Positions 5,291 through 17,438 of a DNA stretch of 64,000 bases are shown here, piece after piece; within the stretch, counting starts at the first letter, position 1, and every line of letters starts with the position of its first letter. The translations under genes were made by a program, and so were the position numbers. Under the pieces are notes generated by a model. It was not told the DNA's origin. It saw only the letters and a list, made by a program, of their open reading frames with translations, and made no database searches. The stretch is from an uncultured virus (IMG/VR IMGVR_UViG_3300033816_001043) (Duplodnaviria > Heunggongvirae > Uroviricota > Caudoviricetes), in IMG/VR virus record IMGVR_UViG_3300033816_001043; one strand, written 5' to 3'.

Positions 5291-5397
5291 TAGTCAGGAC
5301 AGGATTCGAACCTGTAAAATCTTTTATCTGGTTTAGGGTAGGTTCTATTCCTATCTCCTTCCAAAACATATAGCGTCTACCATTCCGCCACCTGGCT
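5291..5397 (-). ncRNA. tRNA-like RNA (acceptor, D and T arms; no canonical anticodon arm)
   Basis: AGCCAGGTGGCGGAATGGTAGACGC...ACAGGTTCGAATCCTGTCCTGACTA. Confidence 0.65.
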
Positions 5398-6559: not shown

Positions 6560-6630
6560 AGCGGATAGTTGGTACCGCCCCAACTTATCTAGTTTGGAAG
6601 ACTAGAACATTACTTTTATGCTATACCCGC
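6560..6630 (-). tRNA. tRNA-Gly(TCC), non-canonical T loop
   Basis: CTAGT-CTTCCAA-ACTAG; T arm GTTGG-GGCGGTA-CCAAC. Confidence 0.8.
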
Positions 6631-9225: not shown

Positions 9226-9302
9226 TGGCGAGCTATAGGGGATTCGAACCCCTGGTCTTCAGCGTGACAAGCTGAAATGTTAAACCCCTACACCAATAGC
9301 TC
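9226..9302 (-). tRNA. tRNA-Asp(GTC), encoded CCA
   Basis: TCAGC-TTGTCAC-GCTGA. Confidence 0.9.
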
Positions 9303-9324
9303 TTTTGTATTAATTCTTCCCTCT

Positions 9325-9336
9325 ATGTCAATGAAC
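9325..9336 (-). promoter_or_regulatory. boxA-like antitermination element GTTCATTGACAT
   Basis: identical 12-mer at 15244-15255; both lie just before the first tRNA of an array. Confidence 0.6.
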
Positions 9337-9355
9337 TTTACAAAGTTAAACAATC

Positions 9356-9835
9356 TTATCCAATTTTCCAAGCACCATAGATAACTTTTTTTCTCTGTAG
9401 TGCATCTTCTGTGTTTCCAATTACAACTCCATCTTTGATTGTGAAAGCATGACCCTTGATTGTAACAATGTAAGTTCCTTTTGAATACTTTTCCAAGAAC
9501 TTAGCTGTTGTCATATTTCTCAAAACATTTCTTCCTTTCACCTCAACCCAATATGCCATTTGAATATCTTCTCTAATTGGTGTAACACCTTTACGATTGA
9601 ACTTTATCTGTTTTGACGCAAGTGCATTCATAGTTAAACCAAAGAGTGCAGTCCCTTGTCTATTTTTTCTACCAAAAACCTCTGCCACTTTTTTGTGAGC
9701 GTAGTCGTAAGTAACTCCAAACGCTGAAGCAAAGGCTCTGACGACACAATCGTCTTTCTCACTTTGAGCTAACTTCGATTCTGCAATCCCTTTGATGGCG
9801 ACTGATGATGATATGTATGGTGTTTTCGTTTTCAT
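9356..9835 (-). CDS. hypothetical phage protein
   Basis: 159 aa; DDCVVRA and GHAF motifs; own promoter at 9840. Confidence 0.7.
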   Translation of the reverse strand: MKTKTPYISSSVAIKGIAESKLAQSEKDDCVVRAFASAFGVTYDYAHKKVAEVFGRKNRQGTALFGLTMNALASKQIKFNRKGVTPIREDIQMAYWVEVKGRNVLRNMTTAKFLEKYSKGTYIVTIKGHAFTIKDGVVIGNTEDALQRKKVIYGAWKIG

Positions 9836-9879
9836 ATTACAAAGTTACAAAACCATTTTTAATTTCCAAACTTTGTGAT

Positions 9880-9915
9880 AAAAAAAAATCCATCTTTTTT
9901 TACGAAGATGGATTT
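9880..9915 (-). terminator. intrinsic terminator/attenuator after leader peptide 1
   Basis: AAATCCATCTT-loop-AAGATGGATTT followed by a T-run. Confidence 0.8.
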
Positions 9916-9942
9916 GACATTATTAACACTCAAAACTTAAGT

Positions 9943-10014
9943 TCATACCATCTCCATCCGAGGATTTCTACCCTCAGCTCCAGTCGTTAAGTCCATATAG
10001 AGATTGCGTTTCAT
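9943..10014 (-). CDS. putative attenuator leader peptide 1 (MKRNLYMDLTTGAEGRNPRMEMV)
   Basis: 23-codon ORF between a TTGACA-N17-TATATT promoter and a terminator; composition matches the downstream tRNA array. Confidence 0.65.
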   Translation of the reverse strand: MKRNLYMDLTTGAEGRNPRMEMV

Positions 10015-10073
10015 TGAATTTCTTACTATTTTTTTATTAAATATAATGATATAACGGAAAAGTGTCAAGTATG

Positions 10074-10385
10074 TTACAAAAAAGATGAAATAATTTGTGC
10101 TACTTTATATCCTGTGAAGGCTCCCAATGCCGCAGAACCTGGTAAAACAAAGAACTTACCGAATAAACTTTCATATTTTGCCCTATTAACGATGTATGAA
10201 ATTAGGATATAATAAAGAAAGAAGTTAATCAGTACAGCAATATCGATTTCCTTGGCCATAAAGACAACAATCGAGTTTCCAAAGAACCCCCAACTGAAGT
10301 TTATTAATGTCTCCCTGATTAATTCCCAAACTGATGTATTGGCATCAGCAACCTTAATTTCCCTTGTAAATAAATTATTTTTCAT
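10074..10385 (-). CDS. membrane protein
   Basis: hydrophobic segments. Confidence 0.65.
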   Translation of the reverse strand: MKNNLFTREIKVADANTSVWELIRETLINFSWGFFGNSIVVFMAKEIDIAVLINFFLYYILISYIVNRAKYESLFGKFFVLPGSAALGAFTGYKVAQIISSFL

Positions 10386-10911: not shown

Positions 10912-11553
10912 TTATTCCTTCGAATCTGTATCGTAAAACATTAAGTCAGAGTCTTCGGTTGCCCATTTATTATGTCCTTCACAATTATAATAATCTAAAT
11001 TAACTAGATAATCAGGTTTCTCAGGAAAATCTTTTGTGACAAAAGAAGGTTCATTCCATCTTATTCTATTGTTGGGTTGTAAGGCAATTTGTCCATTATC
11101 TAATAAGATGATGTGATGACACTTGTGTTCCATAGGGTCTTCTGACAATGTTAAATCAGTATTCATATCACTTGAACCCCAGTTAATTGTGCCAAAATAA
11201 TTTCCATCATACCATTTCTTATCTTTCATAAAAACTGAAACCCGCATCCCATATACAAAACTAAGTTGAATGAGGGAAAAGTTATATGAAAAACAATTCC
11301 ATAATTGCAGAAAATGAAAAGACAAATCAGGATTTGGTGTCTCAGGTTTTGTCAATAGTGCATGAGATGGTAATTTGTCTCTCATTACACCATTGTTCAA
11401 TAAAACCTGAAACAAAACCGCCTGGTTTGGCATACACCGAATCGAAGTAACAATTCCTTCTGTAAACTCACCAAATCCTTTTTGGTGCTGATACATATAT
11501 TCATTTCGAACATAAACTTTAAGTGGGAAAAAATTACTTTCGATATAAGCCAT
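10912..11553 (-). CDS. hypothetical phage protein
   Basis: 213-aa ORF. Confidence 0.75.
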   Translation of the reverse strand: MAYIESNFFPLKVYVRNEYMYQHQKGFGEFTEGIVTSIRCMPNQAVLFQVLLNNGVMRDKLPSHALLTKPETPNPDLSFHFLQLWNCFSYNFSLIQLSFVYGMRVSVFMKDKKWYDGNYFGTINWGSSDMNTDLTLSEDPMEHKCHHIILLDNGQIALQPNNRIRWNEPSFVTKDFPEKPDYLVNLDYYNCEGHNKWATEDSDLMFYDTDSKE

Positions 11554-11555
11554 AA

Positions 11556-11876
11556 TTAACTTGTTGGTATGTCATTTGAGCCATACTCTCTTATTAAATA
11601 GTCGGTAAAATTTTCTACACTTTCAACATTGAACTCAACTTCTTCGTGCCAGATTTTTTTATCAACATCATCATATAACCACCAGCCAACTAAGTCCTGA
11701 ATCCATCCGAATTGTTCGTCTTGTTTTTTTCTGAGGAGGGTCGGAATACTTTTTTCAAGTTGCGGAGTGGTGTTGTTAAACTCAAGTAAATCAACTCCCA
11801 AATCATAGAGCCTATGTATCTTTTCATCGTATTCTTTTATTTTTAACAAAGTTTCGATTATGTATTCTCGTACCAT
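11556..11876 (-). CDS. hypothetical protein
   Basis: ORF. Confidence 0.6.
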   Translation of the reverse strand: MVREYIIETLLKIKEYDEKIHRLYDLGVDLLEFNNTTPQLEKSIPTLLRKKQDEQFGWIQDLVGWWLYDDVDKKIWHEEVEFNVESVENFTDYLIREYGSNDIPTS

Positions 11877-11884
11877 TATAAGTA

Positions 11885-12073
11885 TTATTTAAGTTGTTTG
11901 AAATATTTTGGAATTATTATCATACTACTGATGTAAAATGAAATAAACATCACACCATAAACTAATCCCTCGTTGAAATAGATACCCAAAACATATTTGC
12001 TAATCAATAGCTGGGGTATCATAATCAAAAAGAAAACTAAAAAAGAAAAGAACACAGTTACAAATGTTTTCAT
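11885..12073 (-). CDS. small membrane protein
   Basis: two hydrophobic segments. Confidence 0.5.
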   Translation of the reverse strand: MKTFVTVFFSFLVFFLIMIPQLLISKYVLGIYFNEGLVYGVMFISFYISSMIIIPKYFKQLK

Positions 12074-12102
12074 CTCATTTTATTTTGTGGTTAAATAATT
12101 TG

Positions 12103-12175
12103 CAGGTCCCCAAGGATTCGAACCCTGACCGGATAGGTTGGAGCTATCAATGCTAAGCCATTACACTAGAGACCC
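12103..12175 (-). tRNA. tRNA-Trp(CCA)
   Basis: GATAG-CTCCAAC-CTATC. Confidence 0.88.
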
Positions 12176-12210
12176 ATATATTTGCTTACTATTACAAAGA
12201 TAAGAAAAAA

Positions 12211-12945
12211 TTAAAACTTTTTATATTTTTTATCCCAATTTTCAATCCTTTTTAAAAGTTCTTCCATTGTTATTGATGAATTATCCTTTTTTATTGAATT
12301 ATCTGAGAATAATAATAGATTACAATTCGCAGGATGGGATATAATCTTTGGGTTAATCTTATTTCGAAAACCATCCATCACAGAATACATATGGTCTTTA
12401 CTTACCCCTTTCAAATTATTCCGTTTGTTTGTTGGTGAATACCATCCATATTGTTCAACTAAAGATAAATCAAATTCATCTTTAAAATCTTGGATGTCAA
12501 ACTTAAAAAAACAAGATGGTCTATAATACTCGTAATATGTTAATTTACAATCATTACATATTATTTTCAACTTTTCAGTTACCTCATTAATTGAACAAAT
12601 CTTACAAATCTTTTTAGTTTTAATCTTTTCCTTTCTGGGCTTGTTTTTTAAGGTCTCTGAAATCTTTTTTTTAGTTTCTTCAGTCAGTTTTCTATTTCTA
12701 TTATTATACTGTATAGCACAAGAAGATGAACAAAAGGTATTAGGTTTACTAAAATATTTTTCAAATTCCTTTTTACAATTTTTACAAACTTGATTTTCCT
12801 TGTATATAACTTTTAAATTCAATCTACCCATTTTACAATTGATAGATTTGTAAGTCGTTCCCATAATTTCAGCAATATCACCAGGTCTATAACCCTTCTC
12901 GACAAGTGAAACTAATTGTTTTATATTTTCATCATTCCATTTCAT
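12211..12945 (-). CDS. putative homing-endonuclease-like protein (HTH, Zn ribbons, NUMOD-like segment, HNH-like C-terminus)
   Basis: CxxC motifs, EETKKKISE, KDHMYS...HPANC; inserted in a tRNA array. Confidence 0.55.
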   Translation of the reverse strand: MKWNDENIKQLVSLVEKGYRPGDIAEIMGTTYKSINCKMGRLNLKVIYKENQVCKNCKKEFEKYFSKPNTFCSSSCAIQYNNRNRKLTEETKKKISETLKNKPRKEKIKTKKICKICSINEVTEKLKIICNDCKLTYYEYYRPSCFFKFDIQDFKDEFDLSLVEQYGWYSPTNKRNNLKGVSKDHMYSVMDGFRNKINPKIISHPANCNLLLFSDNSIKKDNSSITMEELLKRIENWDKKYKKF

Positions 12946-12997
12946 ATATATAAATATCTAAGAAATGAGGAAAAGTAAAGAATCGAACTTTTTTTTG

Positions 12998-13071
12998 AGG
13001 TCGGGGAGGGAATCGAACCCCCCTAAAAATGATTTTGCAGGTCATTGCCTAAACCACTCGGCCACCCGACC
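12998..13071 (-). tRNA. tRNA-Cys(GCA)
   Basis: loop CTGCAAA; U73. Confidence 0.88.
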
Positions 13072-13225
13072 TTAATATTTCTTTTTTATCCCCCAACTTC
13101 ACCCCACTCGTCAGTGGGGGAGTGGTTAGGTTGAGTCCGAACTTATACCTTGGGCTATTCGTTGGACGAAAAAGACCACAGCAAGTGAGCAGTTCTTATG
13201 GGATGCTTCGTGGTACATTTATCAG

Positions 13226-13300
13226 TACCTCCTATTGGAGTCGAACCAATGACCTTCACCTTGTAAGGATGTTGCTCTAAACCAACTGAGCTAAGGAAGT
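13226..13300 (-). tRNA. tRNA-Val(TAC)
   Basis: loop CTTACAA. Confidence 0.88.
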
Positions 13301-13307
13301 ATCGTTG

Positions 13308-13382
13308 TGACCCTGGTGGGACTCGAACCCACGCTCCCAATATTAAAAGTATTGTGCTTTAAACCAACTAAGCCACAGGGTC
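13308..13382 (-). tRNA. tRNA-Lys(TTT)
   Basis: CAATA-CTTTTAA-TATTG. Confidence 0.9.
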
Positions 13383-13383
13383 G

Positions 13384-13689
13384 TTAATCAAATCTTCTGT
13401 TAGGATTCATTCCTCTCTTATAGTTCACACACAATCTATCTTTATCATCAAAGAAAGTATTGACCATTGGTGTGCCCAATTTTATACCACAACCATCAGG
13501 TGCGAAACTACATAAACTTCTTGCACGACCATCCAAGTTTACATCTTCCAATAATCTCCACTCAATTCCTGTCTCCACATCATAAACATAATCACCATCT
13601 CTCAATACATAAAGTTGGTTGTATCTGTTTCTCATTGATTCATAAAACTTCGCTGACATAGTGTTCATTAAAATTAAAACTTTCAACAT
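13384..13689 (-). CDS. hypothetical protein (start uncertain)
   Basis: ORF between tRNAs. Confidence 0.55.
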   Translation of the reverse strand: MLKVLILMNTMSAKFYESMRNRYNQLYVLRDGDYVYDVETGIEWRLLEDVNLDGRARSLCSFAPDGCGIKLGTPMVNTFFDDKDRLCVNYKRGMNPNRRFD

Positions 13690-13712
13690 AATTCGGTTGA
13701 TTGAATGGTTAA

Positions 13713-13925
13713 CTAATCCTGTCTAATTACATTCCCAAATCTACACAAAAGATTCATATATTTTACTGTTTCCATCAAATAATTTTGATTTTTATCCATT
13801 AAAATAACAACCTCCATATCAATAATTGCTCTTACCTGAACCTCCTTGTTGTTGGGATTGTCATCACCAAAATCAATAATTAAGTTGTCACCAACTTTAA
13901 ACTCACCAATTTTTACCTTTTCCAT
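13713..13925 (-). CDS. hypothetical protein
   Basis: ORF. Confidence 0.55.
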   Translation of the reverse strand: MEKVKIGEFKVGDNLIIDFGDDNPNNKEVQVRAIIDMEVVILMDKNQNYLMETVKYMNLLCRFGNVIRQD

Positions 13926-13940
13926 AATAAATATTTTTTG

Positions 13941-14015
13941 TTGTTCCGGTGGGGCTCGAACCCACGACTTCTACGGTATCAGCATAGTACTCTAAACCAA
14001 CTGAGTTACGGAACA
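13941..14015 (-). tRNA. tRNA-Ile(GAT)
   Basis: CTATG-CTGATAC-CGTAG. Confidence 0.88.
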
Positions 14016-14022
14016 ATGTTTG

Positions 14023-14096
14023 TGGTTTCATCAGGACTCGAACCTGAAACCCCTCCGTTATGAGCGGAAAGCTCTAACCACTTGAGCTATAAAACC
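14023..14096 (-). tRNA. tRNA(CAT), probably Ile2 (lysidine) or elongator Met
   Basis: loop CTCATAA; adjacent to Ile(GAT). Confidence 0.85.
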
Positions 14097-14110
14097 TTAA
14101 AAAAAATTTG

Positions 14111-14182
14111 TATGGGTGACCGGATTTGAACCGATGACCACTAATTCCCAAAATTAGCATTCTACCTCTGAACTACACCCAT
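14111..14182 (-). tRNA. tRNA-Pro(TGG)
   Basis: CTAAT-TTTGGGA-ATTAG. Confidence 0.85.
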
Positions 14183-14352
14183 ATATTAAACAATTAAACC
14201 ATATATAATTCCACATAGAAGAACAATTAGAAAAATAAGTCCTACTAAGAATAGGTCTGAGTTTCGTTTGAAGTGAGACAAAACTAAGAATAATATTCCA
14301 ATTATCAAAAACAAAAGACCAATTAATAATAACATAATTTAATTTTTTTTTG

Positions 14353-14446
14353 CGGAGAACAGAGGTCTCGAACCCACACACCAGCTCATCACCGATGACA
14401 TCTGATTTTCAAGACCAGGCCGATACCAATTTCGGTTGACTTTTCC
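14353..14446 (-). tRNA. tRNA-Ser(TGA)
   Basis: loop CTTGAAA; long variable arm; G73. Confidence 0.8.
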
Positions 14447-14454
14447 GTATTGTT

Positions 14455-14531
14455 TGGTGGTATGATGGGACTCGAACCCACACATACATCATCCACAATG
14501 ATGTCCCTCTACCAATTGGGGTACATACCAC
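14455..14531 (-). tRNA. tRNA-His(GTG)
   Basis: CATCA-TTGTGGA-TGATG. Confidence 0.85.
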
Positions 14532-14539
14532 ATATAGTT

Positions 14540-14615
14540 TGGTGGTGATGATTGGAATCGAACCAATATTAAACGATTTTCAGTCGTTCGCCTTGACCAA
14601 CTTGGCAACATCACC
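14540..14615 (-). tRNA. tRNA-Phe(GAA), encoded CCA
   Basis: AACGA-CTGAAAA-TCGTT. Confidence 0.9.
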
Positions 14616-14924
14616 ATAAAGTTTTGAGTAAGTATCCACCACGTTTAAGGCTGGCTGTGGACAGTGCTACCTACGACCTTTCCTTACTCTTCTACAAAGT
14701 TACCATTTTTTTTTAATTTCCAAATATCTTTGTAAGTTTTTTTTAAAGTGGTCAAAATCCACCACTTTAAGTTATTACTACACAATCCATAAAATGGTAA
14801 AAACCAATTAATGTAAAACTTGAACAATAAATTATTTTAAAAAAAATTTTGAATTTTACTTGGATGTATGGTATTTGTTTTGTTTCTTTGTTAAACATTA
14901 TTTCACTACTAAAAATTTAAAATT

Positions 14925-15047
14925 ATGAACACACAATTGAGCACAACTTCAAAAATTATTGTTGGAATTATTTCTGTTGTATTATTATACAACGCTACTT
15001 ACCTACTAGGAATTGTTGTAGGTTTTTTACAAGGTATTTTGGGTTAA
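14925..15047 (+). CDS. 40-aa hydrophobic peptide (not in ORF track)
   Basis: MNTQLSTTSKIIVGIISVVLLYNATYLLGIVVGFLQGILG; A-rich leader; followed by a hairpin at 15060-15104. Confidence 0.5.
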   Translation: MNTQLSTTSKIIVGIISVVLLYNATYLLGIVVGFLQGILG

Positions 15048-15154
15048 AATTATTCTTTTAAAAGTAGAATTCGGATTTTATTTAAAAGTTCGAATTCTAC
15101 TTTTATTATCTCTATTTCATTATACCAGGTAATAAAATCCCTCACTTTAGAATG

Positions 15155-15227
15155 TTCCCCCTGATGGAATCGAACCACCATCCTCAGAATCAAAATCTGA
15201 TGTAATCAACCATTATACCAAGAGGGA
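15155..15227 (-). tRNA. tRNA-Gln(TTG)
   Basis: TCAGA-TTTTGAT-TCTGA. Confidence 0.88.
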
Positions 15228-15243
15228 GTATTATTTTACCACG

Positions 15244-15255
15244 ATGTCAATGAAC
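15244..15255 (-). promoter_or_regulatory. boxA-like element GTTCATTGACAT
   Basis: directly after the attenuator T-run; same 12-mer as 9325-9336. Confidence 0.6.
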
Positions 15256-15287
15256 AAAAAAAACCCTGAACTTTATGGTTCAGGGTT
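15256..15287 (-). terminator. intrinsic terminator/attenuator after leader peptide 2
   Basis: AACCCTGAAC-CATAAA-GTTCAGGGTT followed by a T-run. Confidence 0.8.
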
Positions 15288-15311
15288 CTACTATCAAAAA
15301 ATTATTAACAA

Positions 15312-15419
15312 TTATAATTCTATAGAATTTCCCCAACCATTACAAACACTAGGTTTTGACCAACAATTACTAAATTGTGGCTGAACCGATATGTTAATAT
15401 GTTTGAAGAAATTTTTCAT
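15312..15419 (-). CDS. putative attenuator leader peptide 2 (MKNFFKHINISVQPQFSNCWSKPSVCNGWGNSIEL)
   Basis: 35-codon ORF ending about 25 nt before the terminator; composition matches the downstream tRNA array. Confidence 0.7.
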   Translation of the reverse strand: MKNFFKHINISVQPQFSNCWSKPSVCNGWGNSIEL

Positions 15420-15463
15420 TTTTTTAGTTTGTTTATAAGTATTGCGAAATTAATAAAAAGTTT

Positions 15464-15529
15464 GGCTCAGAATGATTTTTTTCCAAAGTTGCAATTTTGT
15501 TTAGTTTGCTGAACTCATTCTTTATAACC
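15464..15529 (-). ncRNA. TROVE-associated small RNA, copy A
   Basis: AGAATGA-GTTCAGCAA...TCATTCT-G stem. Confidence 0.6.
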
Positions 15530-15535
15530 TAAATT

Positions 15536-15603
15536 GACAGGATAGTGTTTGGTCAAATTTACAAGTTTTGATGTTTAAAGATTGCTGAATCTATCCCTCG
15601 TTC
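15536..15603 (-). ncRNA. TROVE-associated small RNA, copy B
   Basis: GGATAG-ATTCAGCAA...CTATCC-TG stem. Confidence 0.6.
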
Positions 15604-15650
15604 TATATAACGTAAATATAATTAAAAAGTTTCAAAAAGAAAAGAAAATT

Positions 15651-15796
15651 GGAAAAATTGGTTTCAGTATGGGTTTTTTGTTGAAGTTTATTTCCGTGCG
15701 ATTGGAAAAATGAGTCAACAACTCAGCCTTGTGTTCGAATGATTCAATATTTGTATCTTAGTTTGCTGGAATCATACTTTATAAACCAATTTTTCC
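15651..15796 (-). ncRNA. TROVE-associated small RNA, copy C
   Basis: 14-bp outer stem; AGTATG-ATTCCAGCAA...CATACT-G. Confidence 0.6.
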
Positions 15797-15803
15797 TTTT
15801 CTC

Positions 15804-17201
15804 TTAGATTTCGATGATTGAGTATCTCTCTGAATTGATTGTCTCATTCATAATAGATACTGGTGTCATCTGTTTTCCACCCAATACTGACTTTACAATA
15901 CTTGGTGAAAGACCTGAGATTAATGCAGTCCCCGATTCATCACATCTAACAGGAAAGTTTTTATTCCTTGATTGAATATTCCAAAATATGATTTGTGGTA
16001 ATGAATAGCCACTTTCATCATACATTCTTCTTATCATCTGAATCGCACTTTCAGAGTGACGTGAAGCTTGGTTAAATTCCATATCAGACATAATCAATAT
16101 CTTAGAAGGCATATCTTCAGGTGATACACTATGTTTGATAGCTTGATTAAGAATAAGTTCGAATACTTTTTCTAAGTTAGTACTCATACCCCAATCCGCA
16201 ACTAACATTTGGTCGTAGCGTTCTTTAAGTGTCCCCGAAACCTTTTCAAGTTGGGGCTTTTCAGAGAAAGTAATGAAAGAATCTTTGAAAACTCCTTCAT
16301 TTCTTTCTGAGATATATAAACCTAAAGAAACTGCTACATCCAAACAACTAATACTACCAGAAACTATTGAACTCATTGAACCTGACACATCAACTACAGG
16401 TAAAATTCTTTCAGTTGTACCTTCCATAAAGTTTGGTAAAGCTTTCCATTGCTCGTTTGCCAATTCCCAACTACCTTGTTTCATTGTTTGAACAATGTTA
16501 TAAGGATATATAGCACCAGCATTCACTTTGGTTTCACCTTTCTTTAGTTTTTCTAAATACTCAGTGAATCCAGTTGTGTCGTGTTTTGCAAAAGCTTTTG
16601 TGTATCTACCCATAGCTAATGAAGGAGTCTTTTCATACTCAATATTAGTCCATTGGTTTGCGCACATCTTTTGTTCAACAGTATTGGAAATACCCACCAA
16701 TAACTTACGAAGGTCTTTAGGAGTGGTATTTAATGCCTTTCTAATTGCATTGAATATAACACCCTTTCTTGGTATCCATTTCGCACATAGTCCATTTTCT
16801 ACAATAAGACCACTTACGAACATTCTGGTTGCCTCAGCTTCCAACTTGGTACCAAAAAGAACTGAAAGGTCATCCCATCTACCAAAGTATGGTATTGCTT
16901 GGATGTTCTTTTGAACAACATTTGGATGATTCTCCACAAGATACTTGATGATATCTCGGAAGATTTGTCTTTCACCTGCTCCACCTCTTACATCTCTAAC
17001 CCAAAATAGGATTTTCAATGCTGACAACGGATTCTCATTGAAAGCTTTTGAGAATGTTGAGATAAGTCTTTCCTTATCTTGTTTTCTCATAGCACCAATA
17101 GTAAAGAATAGGTTTACACATTCGTTCAAAGTTGAAGAATTAGTTACCATTCCATTTTCCGTGTAAGTGTCCTCTGATTGTAAGGCATCAATGAAGTTCA
17201 T
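15804..17201 (-). CDS. TROVE/Ro60-like protein with C-terminal vWA domain (DUF2828-type)
   Basis: TENG, RDVRGGAGER, GRWDDL, AKWIPR, MIDAS VVDVSGSM, ILIMSDMEF, IIFWN. Confidence 0.85.
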   Translation of the reverse strand: MNFIDALQSEDTYTENGMVTNSSTLNECVNLFFTIGAMRKQDKERLISTFSKAFNENPLSALKILFWVRDVRGGAGERQIFRDIIKYLVENHPNVVQKNIQAIPYFGRWDDLSVLFGTKLEAEATRMFVSGLIVENGLCAKWIPRKGVIFNAIRKALNTTPKDLRKLLVGISNTVEQKMCANQWTNIEYEKTPSLAMGRYTKAFAKHDTTGFTEYLEKLKKGETKVNAGAIYPYNIVQTMKQGSWELANEQWKALPNFMEGTTERILPVVDVSGSMSSIVSGSISCLDVAVSLGLYISERNEGVFKDSFITFSEKPQLEKVSGTLKERYDQMLVADWGMSTNLEKVFELILNQAIKHSVSPEDMPSKILIMSDMEFNQASRHSESAIQMIRRMYDESGYSLPQIIFWNIQSRNKNFPVRCDESGTALISGLSPSIVKSVLGGKQMTPVSIMNETINSERYSIIEI

Positions 17202-17261
17202 ATCGTTTCGTTTAATTGTGTTTTAAAACTTAAGTAATCGTTTTTGATTTGTCAAGGACTT

Positions 17262-17438
17262 TTAAATCTTTTTTACTTCGTATTTGTAACCTGAGTCGGA
17301 ATTAGTTTCGAAAAGATTCTTCATATTTTCAGCCTCCTCAATAGTTTCAAATTCTAATACTTCACATTGTGTATCAACTAATACAACAGGTAAAGTCGTA
17401 TTGTGGTCTGTTTTGATGTGTTTTACAATAATATACAT
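17262..17438 (-). CDS. hypothetical protein (58 aa; not in ORF track)
   Basis: MYIIVKHIK...YKYEVKKI fills the gap. Confidence 0.55.
   Translation of the reverse strand: MYIIVKHIKTDHNTTLPVVLVDTQCEVLEFETIEEAENMKNLFETNSDSGYKYEVKKI

Follow-up and report, generated by a model that had tools for sequence, protein, structure and literature searches.

The enterobacterial ilvGMEDA and thr leaders are multivalent attenuators, the former carrying Ile, Leu and Val codons and the latter Thr and Ile codons. At trpL, a ribosome that has reached the stop codon masks segment 2 and the terminator forms. The pheM leader of pheST, the operon for Phe-tRNA synthetase, is an attenuator that responds to tRNA charging, and T-box riboswitches bind uncharged tRNA directly, with no need of an ORF. 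A full-text search of the literature found no description of leader-peptide control of tRNA genes or of phage tRNA arrays, in agreement with an earlier reading of the locus described here, made from the letters alone (the sequence-only reading), which knew of none for phage tRNA arrays.

Why phages carry tRNA arrays and how these are controlled is an open question, which has become sharper since tRNA-cleaving defense systems were described. Phage tRNAs counter tRNA-cleaving immunity, as exerted by retron effectors, PARIS AriB and PrrC (PMC11555353, PMC11464382). The abstracts of these two studies focus on which tRNAs rescue infection and mention no sensing leader. The counter-defense role outlined there could plausibly select for phages that raise their own tRNAs when those of the host fall.

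Here we describe a locus on the minus strand of a 64,000-nt stretch of DNA (the window) from an uncultured virus of the Caudoviricetes (IMG/VR record IMGVR_UViG_3300033816_001043), in which a short ORF (leader ORF 2) and an intrinsic terminator precede a tRNA array (array 2), and a companion module precedes array 1. Like the ilv and thr attenuators, leader 2 combines a short, presumably translated leader ORF with an intrinsic terminator, 2:3 and 3:4 pairings that exclude each other, a candidate 1:2 pairing and codons that cover more than a single amino acid. Unlike them, the phage module would regulate tRNAs rather than biosynthetic enzymes, and the phage leaders would sense ten to twelve amino acids, each through single codons, where the enterobacterial leaders sense two or three through runs. 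The two phage leaders also split the code between them, their bearer is a phage of a probable Bacteroidota host, and they match no Rfam leader family. The four-segment logic of trpL is recognizable in leader 2, but the stop codon lies after segment 2 and not between segments 1 and 2, a central hairpin separates these two segments, and the 1:2 pairing is weaker than the 2:3 pairing. Leader 2 resembles pheM as a leader-peptide attenuator over a component of the translation apparatus, whereas pheM serves a single amino acid and a protein-coding target. As in T-box systems, tRNA status would decide between terminator and antiterminator; in contrast to them, the phage module uses an ORF, and the Rfam model of the T-box (specifier loop and T-box sequence) has no match in 11500-16500 at E <= 1.

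Leader ORF 2, its terminator and the downstream tRNA genes

The sequence-only reading had placed a minus-strand ORF at 15419-15312, shortly 5′ of an intrinsic terminator. Both are present (Table 1). The terminator hairpin begins 22 nt after the stop codon and consists of 12 pairs, 5 of them G-C, followed by a T run, with a free energy of -15.9 kcal/mol in the window. A terminator lies between the ORF and the tRNAs in all seven DNA variants of the module described below (-12.6 to -15.9 kcal/mol, 7-8 U). The sole Rfam match over it is rli42, at 25 bits against a gathering score of 80, and no Rfam leader family (Trp_leader, His_leader, Leu_leader, Thr_leader and others) matches at E <= 1 within 11500-16500 or 9300-10300. 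The leader 2 peptide matches no Pfam or PHROG family, and tblastn against GenBank phages found no relative, with two chance matches at E = 8. When 13900-17300 was compared with GenBank phages by blastn, 64 distant records matched in the upstream DUF2828 gene only, and none over the leader.

Table 1. Features of the two leader-terminator modules, with positions in the window, and variants of the leader 2 peptide
Feature	Position	Strand	Remarks
Leader ORF 2, 35 codons plus stop	15312..15419	minus	encodes MKNFFKHINISVQPQFSNCWSKPSVCNGWGNSIEL; kept in 11/11 related contigs covering the site
Segment 1, codons 3-8	15397..15413	minus	pairs with segment 2 in the full-length minimum-energy fold
Central hairpin (CCNCAA...UUGUUGG) within the ORF	15359..15381	minus	survives an indel shifting a Phe codon
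Segment 2, predicted antiterminator strand AUGGUUGGGG(AAAUU), codons 27-32	15326..15343	minus	best partner of the terminator 5′ arm
Intrinsic terminator (segments 3 and 4) with T run	15256..15289	minus	hairpin 15289-15260
Conserved 17-nt motif GTTCATTGACATCGTGG	15239..15255	minus	ends 11 nt 5′ of tRNA-Gln
tRNA-Gln(UUG), first gene 3′ of the terminator	15154..15227	minus	called by ARAGORN
Rest of array 2: Phe, His, Ser(UGA)-like, Pro, CAT (Ile2-type), Ile, Lys, Val, Cys, Trp	12102..14615	minus	small genes between
Host-type promoter-like block, TTTG-N18-TAACTTTG	14695..14724	minus	between tRNA-Gln and tRNA-Phe; kept in relatives
Second copy of the promoter-like block	9840..9870	minus	directly 3′ of terminator 1
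Leader ORF 1, MKRNLYMDLTTGAEGRNPRMEMV	9943..10014	minus	companion module of array 1
Terminator of leader 1	9886..9915	minus	hairpin 3′ of leader ORF 1
Leader 2 peptide, window and L002			identical, MKNFFKHINISVQPQFSNCWSKPSVCNGWGNSIEL
Leader 2 peptide, L042			I33L
Leader 2 peptide, L003			MKNFIKHINISVQPQFSNCWSKPNIGYGLGNSKDL
Leader 2 peptide, L004			MRNSINHISKSVQPQFSNCWSTNPYGSDRVS
Leader 2 peptide, L005			MKNTINHIKRSILPQSNFCWSVDTYIMV
Leader 2 peptide, L066			MKNSNNHIKQSFQPQSNICWSDRHIWFRS

ARAGORN called 21 tRNAs in the window. Ten of them form array 2 (15227 to 12102), namely Gln, Phe, His, Pro, CAT, Ile, Lys, Val, Cys and Trp, which bears out the downstream genes listed by the sequence-only reading except for Ser. 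This one stands in part: in the window, the Ser(UGA)-like copy (14354-14446) does not reach the threshold, gives only a 22-bit tRNA-Sec match and has a mispaired acceptor stem, but its homologs in G004 and G005 reach 31 bits with RF00005, and the gene is a proper tRNA in relatives. Array 1 consists of Asp, Glu, Met, Met, Tyr, Gly, Thr, Tyr, Arg(UCU), Leu and Leu. The split of the tRNAs into two arrays is kept in G003, G004 and G005, and in the nearest record, G001 (148 kb), all tRNAs lie within one stretch of about 11.3 kb.

Other tRNA-like sequences were noted on the minus strand. Compared with relatives, 14186-14456 has lost tRNA-Asn, tRNA-Arg(ACG) and tRNA-Ser(GCU) between His and Pro and holds a 49-aa hydrophobic ORF (14335-14186) instead. 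Two tRNA matches were found by Rfam only: Gly(UCC) at 6560-6630 with an odd T loop (46 bits), and a tRNA-like gene of 107 nt at 5291-5397 with 47 extra bases at the position of the anticodon arm (34 bits).

The 17-nt motif between the terminator and tRNA-Gln has a sister copy at 9335-9320 (minus strand) before tRNA-Asp, where the stretch 9320-9345 reads TAACTTTG and then GTTCATTGACATAGAGGG. The form GTTCATTGACAT is common to the tRNA-Gln and tRNA-Asp leaders, and the L004 version is GTTCTTTGACAT. The presence of the motif before both genes suggests a common 5′ leader element of tRNA transcripts, which may be boxA-like. The boxA consensus is bound by NusB/NusE and lies 3′ of the promoter in the antitermination leaders of rRNA and tRNA operons. 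In the window, TTGAMATYGTGG has 36 matches against 32.7 expected, which is no repetition beyond chance, and only the copy before tRNA-Asp is similar; the motif is therefore no general phage promoter. Neither a sigma-70-like nor a Bacteroidota-type promoter was identified for leader 2; the sites at 15345-15317 and 15297-15270 (9/12 matches) are not conserved in relatives.

Conservation of the module and selection on the leader

To compare the module among related phages, 20 IMG/VR loci were retrieved with the upstream protein, and seven close relatives extend past that gene. In each of these seven, the ORF, the terminator, the motif and tRNA-Gln are present. When IMG/VR was scanned with a pattern, the seven known contigs came back together with only two chance matches, L022 and L023, which are unrelated sequence and were discarded as module carriers. 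A scan with a tRNA-Gln pattern yielded no contigs beyond the same seven. Among 46 matches of a metagenome pattern scan, four (L030, L042, L048 and L066) carry the module and the other 42 are unrelated. The complete set thus comprises 11 related contigs with 7 DNA variants and 6 peptides, from the single clade available, and includes one double-compensatory pair. Upstream of the module, one or two extra genes are inserted in L003 and L005. Because the module is kept despite these insertions, it is itself the conserved unit.

The peptide core (S-V/I/F-Q/L-P-Q..S-N..C-W-S) is invariant, and the C-terminus is variable. Over the first 21 codons the changes are overwhelmingly synonymous, with pN/pS far below 1. 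Between the window and L003, pS is 0.41 and pN 0.02 in codons 1-21; between the window and L004, codons 11-21 contain 5.0 synonymous changes per 6.0 sites and none per 27 non-synonymous sites; and the window differs from L002 by 3 synonymous and 0 non-synonymous changes. The frame has therefore been selected as coding, or at least for amino-acid identity. Judged by these substitutions, leader ORF 2 is under purifying selection and may be translated. Failure of the ORF to be conserved had been named in advance as a possible refutation of the proposed regulation; the ORF persists, under purifying selection, in 11 of the 11 contigs that reach the site.

Alternative pairings of the terminator 5′ arm

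The fold plan is the same in all variants, with segment 1, the central hairpin, segment 2, the stop codon and a weak A-U spacer hairpin, and the terminator in this order. In the full-length minimum-energy folds, segment 1 pairs with 2 and segment 3 with 4. When the terminator 3′ arm was withheld, segment 2 paired with 3 in the window, L002, L003 and L066. The 22-nt windows that pair best with the terminator 5′ arm contain segment 2 in 5/5 distinct variants. Across these five, the 2:3 duplex has -12.4 to -13.6 kcal/mol, with 0.000-0.050 of shuffles as good, the 1:2 duplex -9.7 to -12.2 kcal/mol (0.012-0.076 of shuffles), and the 3:4 duplex -14.7 to -17.2 kcal/mol. The 1:2 pairing occurs in all full-length minimum-energy folds, yet it is weaker than 2:3 and its register differs among the variants. 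The antiterminator 2:3 and the terminator 3:4 are mutually exclusive in 5/5 variants and share 7 nt of the terminator 5′ arm.

The AUGGUU core of segment 2, at the 3′ end of the ORF, is invariant, and L005 reads AUGGUU in another frame. The pair following this core is C-G in L004, U-A in L066 and U.G in L003 and L005, and it is a mismatch in the window; the change in L066 is also matched in the terminator 3′ arm. As a control, we examined the eight strict terminator sites of the 64-kb window. An upstream partner of the 5′ arm beyond shuffles exists only at the two sites of the tRNA region (0.025 and 0.015), and the remaining six score 0.25-0.83 against shuffles.

Two strands within the ORF had been proposed to pair with the terminator 5′ arm. 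One of them, GGTTGGGG, falls within AUGGUUGGGG (15340-15331), the conserved antiterminator strand. The other, GGTTCAG (15387-15381), does complement CTGAACC but is neither conserved (GTACAG in L004, ATTCTG in L005, TTTCAG in L066) nor the best partner. We ruled it out as the antiterminator strand on account of its non-conservation and of the better partner, segment 2.

Predicted effect of the ribosome position

We modeled the leader with the ribosome A site on each codon in turn, the RNA being free from 12 nt after the first base of the codon and the terminator 3′ arm being withheld. In this model, the terminator 5′ arm is paired 0.8-0.97 of the time when the ribosome is at codon 1 to about 22-24; once the ribosome has reached about codon 27, and up to the stop, this fraction is 0.02-0.3, with values up to about 0.5 in between. 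The switch point falls at codons 22-27 in five variants, a position given by the model and not by measurement. As the pairing of the 5′ arm falls late in the ORF, a ribosome that finishes the leader would, in the model, permit termination, and one held earlier would prevent it. With no ribosome, the equilibrium fold sequesters the 5′ arm 0.37-0.87 of the time, favoring 2:3. Since the arm is already sequestered in this state, termination without translation is not predicted by thermodynamics, and the classical state in which the lack of translation leads to termination would need a kinetic order of folding. In the window and L003, every residue foreign to the array (G, Y, L, D and E) comes later than the switch point; before the switch, L005 has three to four, L004 one and L066 one.

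A companion module and the amino-acid composition of both leaders

The module before array 1 has the same four-segment layout as leader 2 and is kept in 3/3 relatives with a match, four records having been searched. It has a conserved TTGACA-17-TATATT site at 10068-10040 (11/12 match). The leader 1 peptide is unrelated to the leader 2 peptide and complementary to it in composition.

In the sequence-only reading, the ten amino acids of array 2 made up 25 of the 35 residues of leader 2, Asn was the sole foreign residue in codons 2-27, and both ATT and ATA were present. These counts are correct. After Met1, the ten account for 25/34 residues, whereas the expectation from the proteome is 0.447 (binomial p = 6e-4), and windows taken from real proteins give an empirical value of 5.7e-4. 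Among the mechanical ORFs of 25-60 aa in the window (n = 221), 7 have the same in-set share and 4 contain all ten amino acids. Shuffling within codon position, which keeps base content and first-letter bias, gave 0.0026 (leader 2) and 0.0074 (leader 1). When Asn and Arg are added, which is the set of the relatives' array, codons 2-23 of the window leader are 22/22 in the set, a result reached by 0/5000 shuffles. In leader 1, 16/22 residues belong to the array-1 set (p = 0.008). Fisher's test of the two leaders against the two tRNA sets gave 2e-6. Among the 43,758 ways of splitting the 18 phage-tRNA amino acids into 10 + 8, the real split is the sole maximum separator of both peptides. The composition match of leader 2 is beyond chance and survives the proteome, small-ORF and base-composition nulls.

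The relation between composition and array content, proposed earlier as the feature to follow among relatives, thus holds against three nulls and extends to a second leader that matches the complementary block, but the leaders do not finely track gains and losses of tRNAs among the relatives. The window is without the tRNAs for Asn, Arg(ACG) and Ser(GCU) found in relatives, and its leader 2 has five Asn, the commonest residue, and AGT codons. L002 and G005 are without tRNA-Val and their leaders retain Val; G003 and G005 are without tRNA-Gly and leader 1 retains Gly. The AGA Arg codons in the L004 and L066 leaders are served by the tRNA of the other array. No codon run in leader 2 is longer than two (FF), and most amino acids occur one to three times.

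A candidate attenuator of tRNA arrays and its alternatives

We read the locus as a ribosome-mediated attenuator of the trp/ilv type, with sensing codons matched to the array, placed before tRNA-Gln and the rest of array 2, and give this reading a probability of about 0.6. Its basis, established in silico, is the conservation of and selection on the ORF, together with the terminator, the alternative pairings kept among relatives, the match in composition and the ribosome-position logic. From these we infer translation of the leader, the efficiency of termination, the promoter and the response to tRNA supply. Because the leader is spelled almost only in the amino acids of the downstream tRNAs and stands before a switchable stop, the phage probably reads its own tRNA supply.

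RNA polymerase would transcribe the 35-codon leader. A ribosome reaching the stop codon would cover segment 2 (AUGGUUGGGG), whereupon the terminator hairpin would form and transcription would stop. A ribosome held in codons 1 to about 24 would leave segment 2 free to pair with the terminator 5′ arm, and polymerase would enter the tRNA genes. Slow decoding of any listed codon, caused by starvation or by cleavage of host tRNAs, would then result in more transcription of exactly that tRNA block. The sister leader 1 would act in the same way for array 1, with the complementary amino acids. The multiplex sensor of tRNA supply that the sequence-only reading saw in leader 2 is partly supported, with translation, termination and the response to tRNA shortage as its predicted steps. 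That the two leaders are complementary multiplex sensors which divide the genetic code, each block being opened when any of its listed codons is decoded slowly so that tRNA supply corrects itself, is a more tentative proposal, to which we give somewhat less than an even chance.

If true, tRNA genes would for the first time be known to be under feedback control by translation, and leader-peptide attenuation, so far a matter of two or three amino acids, would reach ten or more. The circuit could answer host anticodon nucleases or a mismatch in codon usage block by block. It could also explain the sorting of tRNAs into particular arrays, which provides a testable grouping rule, and such a rule could let sequence alone tell which host tRNAs a phage expects to lose.

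The strong purifying selection on amino-acid identity fits equally well with a conserved micropeptide gene that has its own function and its own terminator, tRNA-Gln being transcribed from another start or by leak-through. An invariant core with a variable C-terminus is in keeping with such a gene, and the promoter-like blocks could drive the arrays independently of it. We nevertheless regard this explanation as unlikely. AUGGUU is kept at the nucleotide level across frames and is complementary to the terminator arm in 5/5 variants, such partners are found only at the two tRNA-region terminators, and a second, unrelated peptide has the complementary composition. The peptide also lacks a Pfam or PHROG family and a tblastn relative among GenBank phages.

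An attenuator of the same build could instead gauge general translation capacity, for example after host shut-off, with no codon specificity and with the composition match as a secondary feature. In our model any stall or failed initiation gives the antiterminator, the codons are single and not in runs, and the leaders do not track array changes, all of which suit a sensor of this kind. It leaves aside, however, that the composition match of both leaders survives the proteome, small-ORF and base-composition nulls, that no other of the 43,758 tRNA splits does as well as the real one and that the foreign residues cluster after the switch point, and we hold it to be quite improbable. A chance ORF beside an ordinary terminator insulating the upstream operon, which might arise readily in AT-rich DNA where 7 of the 221 ORFs of 25-60 aa in the window have the same in-set share, is already disfavored and now hardly credible, given conservation with synonymous change across 6 peptide variants, structured pairing partners and a sister module.

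Promoter-like blocks and genome context

For the attenuator reading, the transcription of the arrays from other sites has to be considered. The sequence-only reading had pointed to a TAACTTTG promoter-like site (14724-14695) and a hairpin (15060-15104) inside the array, both of which are real. The blocks at 14724-14695 and 9870-9840 are near-identical (TTTGGAAATTAAAAA...TAACTTTG), each lies 3′ of a terminator, and in array 1 a 159-aa gene follows the block. The Bacteroidota-type promoter pattern TTTG-N17-21-TAnnTTTG occurs 14 times in the window against 5.4 expected, a number reached in 0/100 shuffles. Only tRNA-Gln lies between terminator 2 and the promoter-like block, and most of the arrays may therefore be transcribed without read-through. 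The attenuators may add only part of the array transcription, in a stage-specific or conditional manner; this caveat had been raised for leader 2 and is strengthened by the promoter-like sites that follow both terminators. Four runs of RNA-labeled libraries contributed assembled contigs of relatives only, in which the leader is thinly covered and from which transcript starts, ends and strand cannot be read, and they speak neither for nor against transcription or termination.

The G+C content of the window is 30%, and by the CheckV completeness estimates of related records the genome would measure about 300 kb. The probable host is a Bacteroidota bacterium. In G007, a distant phage with the same DUF2828 family, no ORF-terminator module was seen by eye (L089 2780-3100) before a block of 19 tRNAs that follows lysis-like genes; the design is therefore not universal. 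G006 was left out of the module comparison, as its array runs off the contig end.

Additional elements surround the module. A segment of 380 nt at 14773-15152 is missing from L042, L003 and contigs of runs X1-X3, has TAAAGTG repeats at its flanks and contains a plus-strand 40-aa hydrophobic ORF (14925-15047) and the hairpin at 15060-15104, which is A-U-rich and 20 bp long. The segment resembles a small insertion that separates tRNA-Gln from the promoter-like block. Between this block and tRNA-Phe, 14616-14694 (minus strand) harbors a conserved element, about 66 nt long and closed by the 7-bp stem GAGUAAG/CUUACUC; the element is near-identical in L003 and L004, different in L005, and without a tRNA call or Rfam match.

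The gene upstream of the module (17201-15804) encodes a DUF2828/DUF7788 protein belonging to phrog_850, annotated as 'RNA-binding protein'. Between this gene and the leader, at 15420-15803 on the minus strand, there are three tandem structured-RNA-like units with no Rfam match. The units have a closing stem of 6-7 bp, the 5′ loop RUUCAGCAA and a 3′ CUGA, and their stems vary compensatorily in relatives (GGGAUAG/CUAUCCU, GGGUAG/CUACCC and GGGAUAA/UUAUCCC). They may be partner RNAs of the neighboring DUF2828/DUF7788 protein. At the far end of array 2, a gene of 244 aa (12211-12945, minus strand) lies between tRNA-Trp and tRNA-Cys; its weak NUMOD3, GcrA-like and homing-endonuclease PHROG matches indicate that it is probably a mobile endonuclease.
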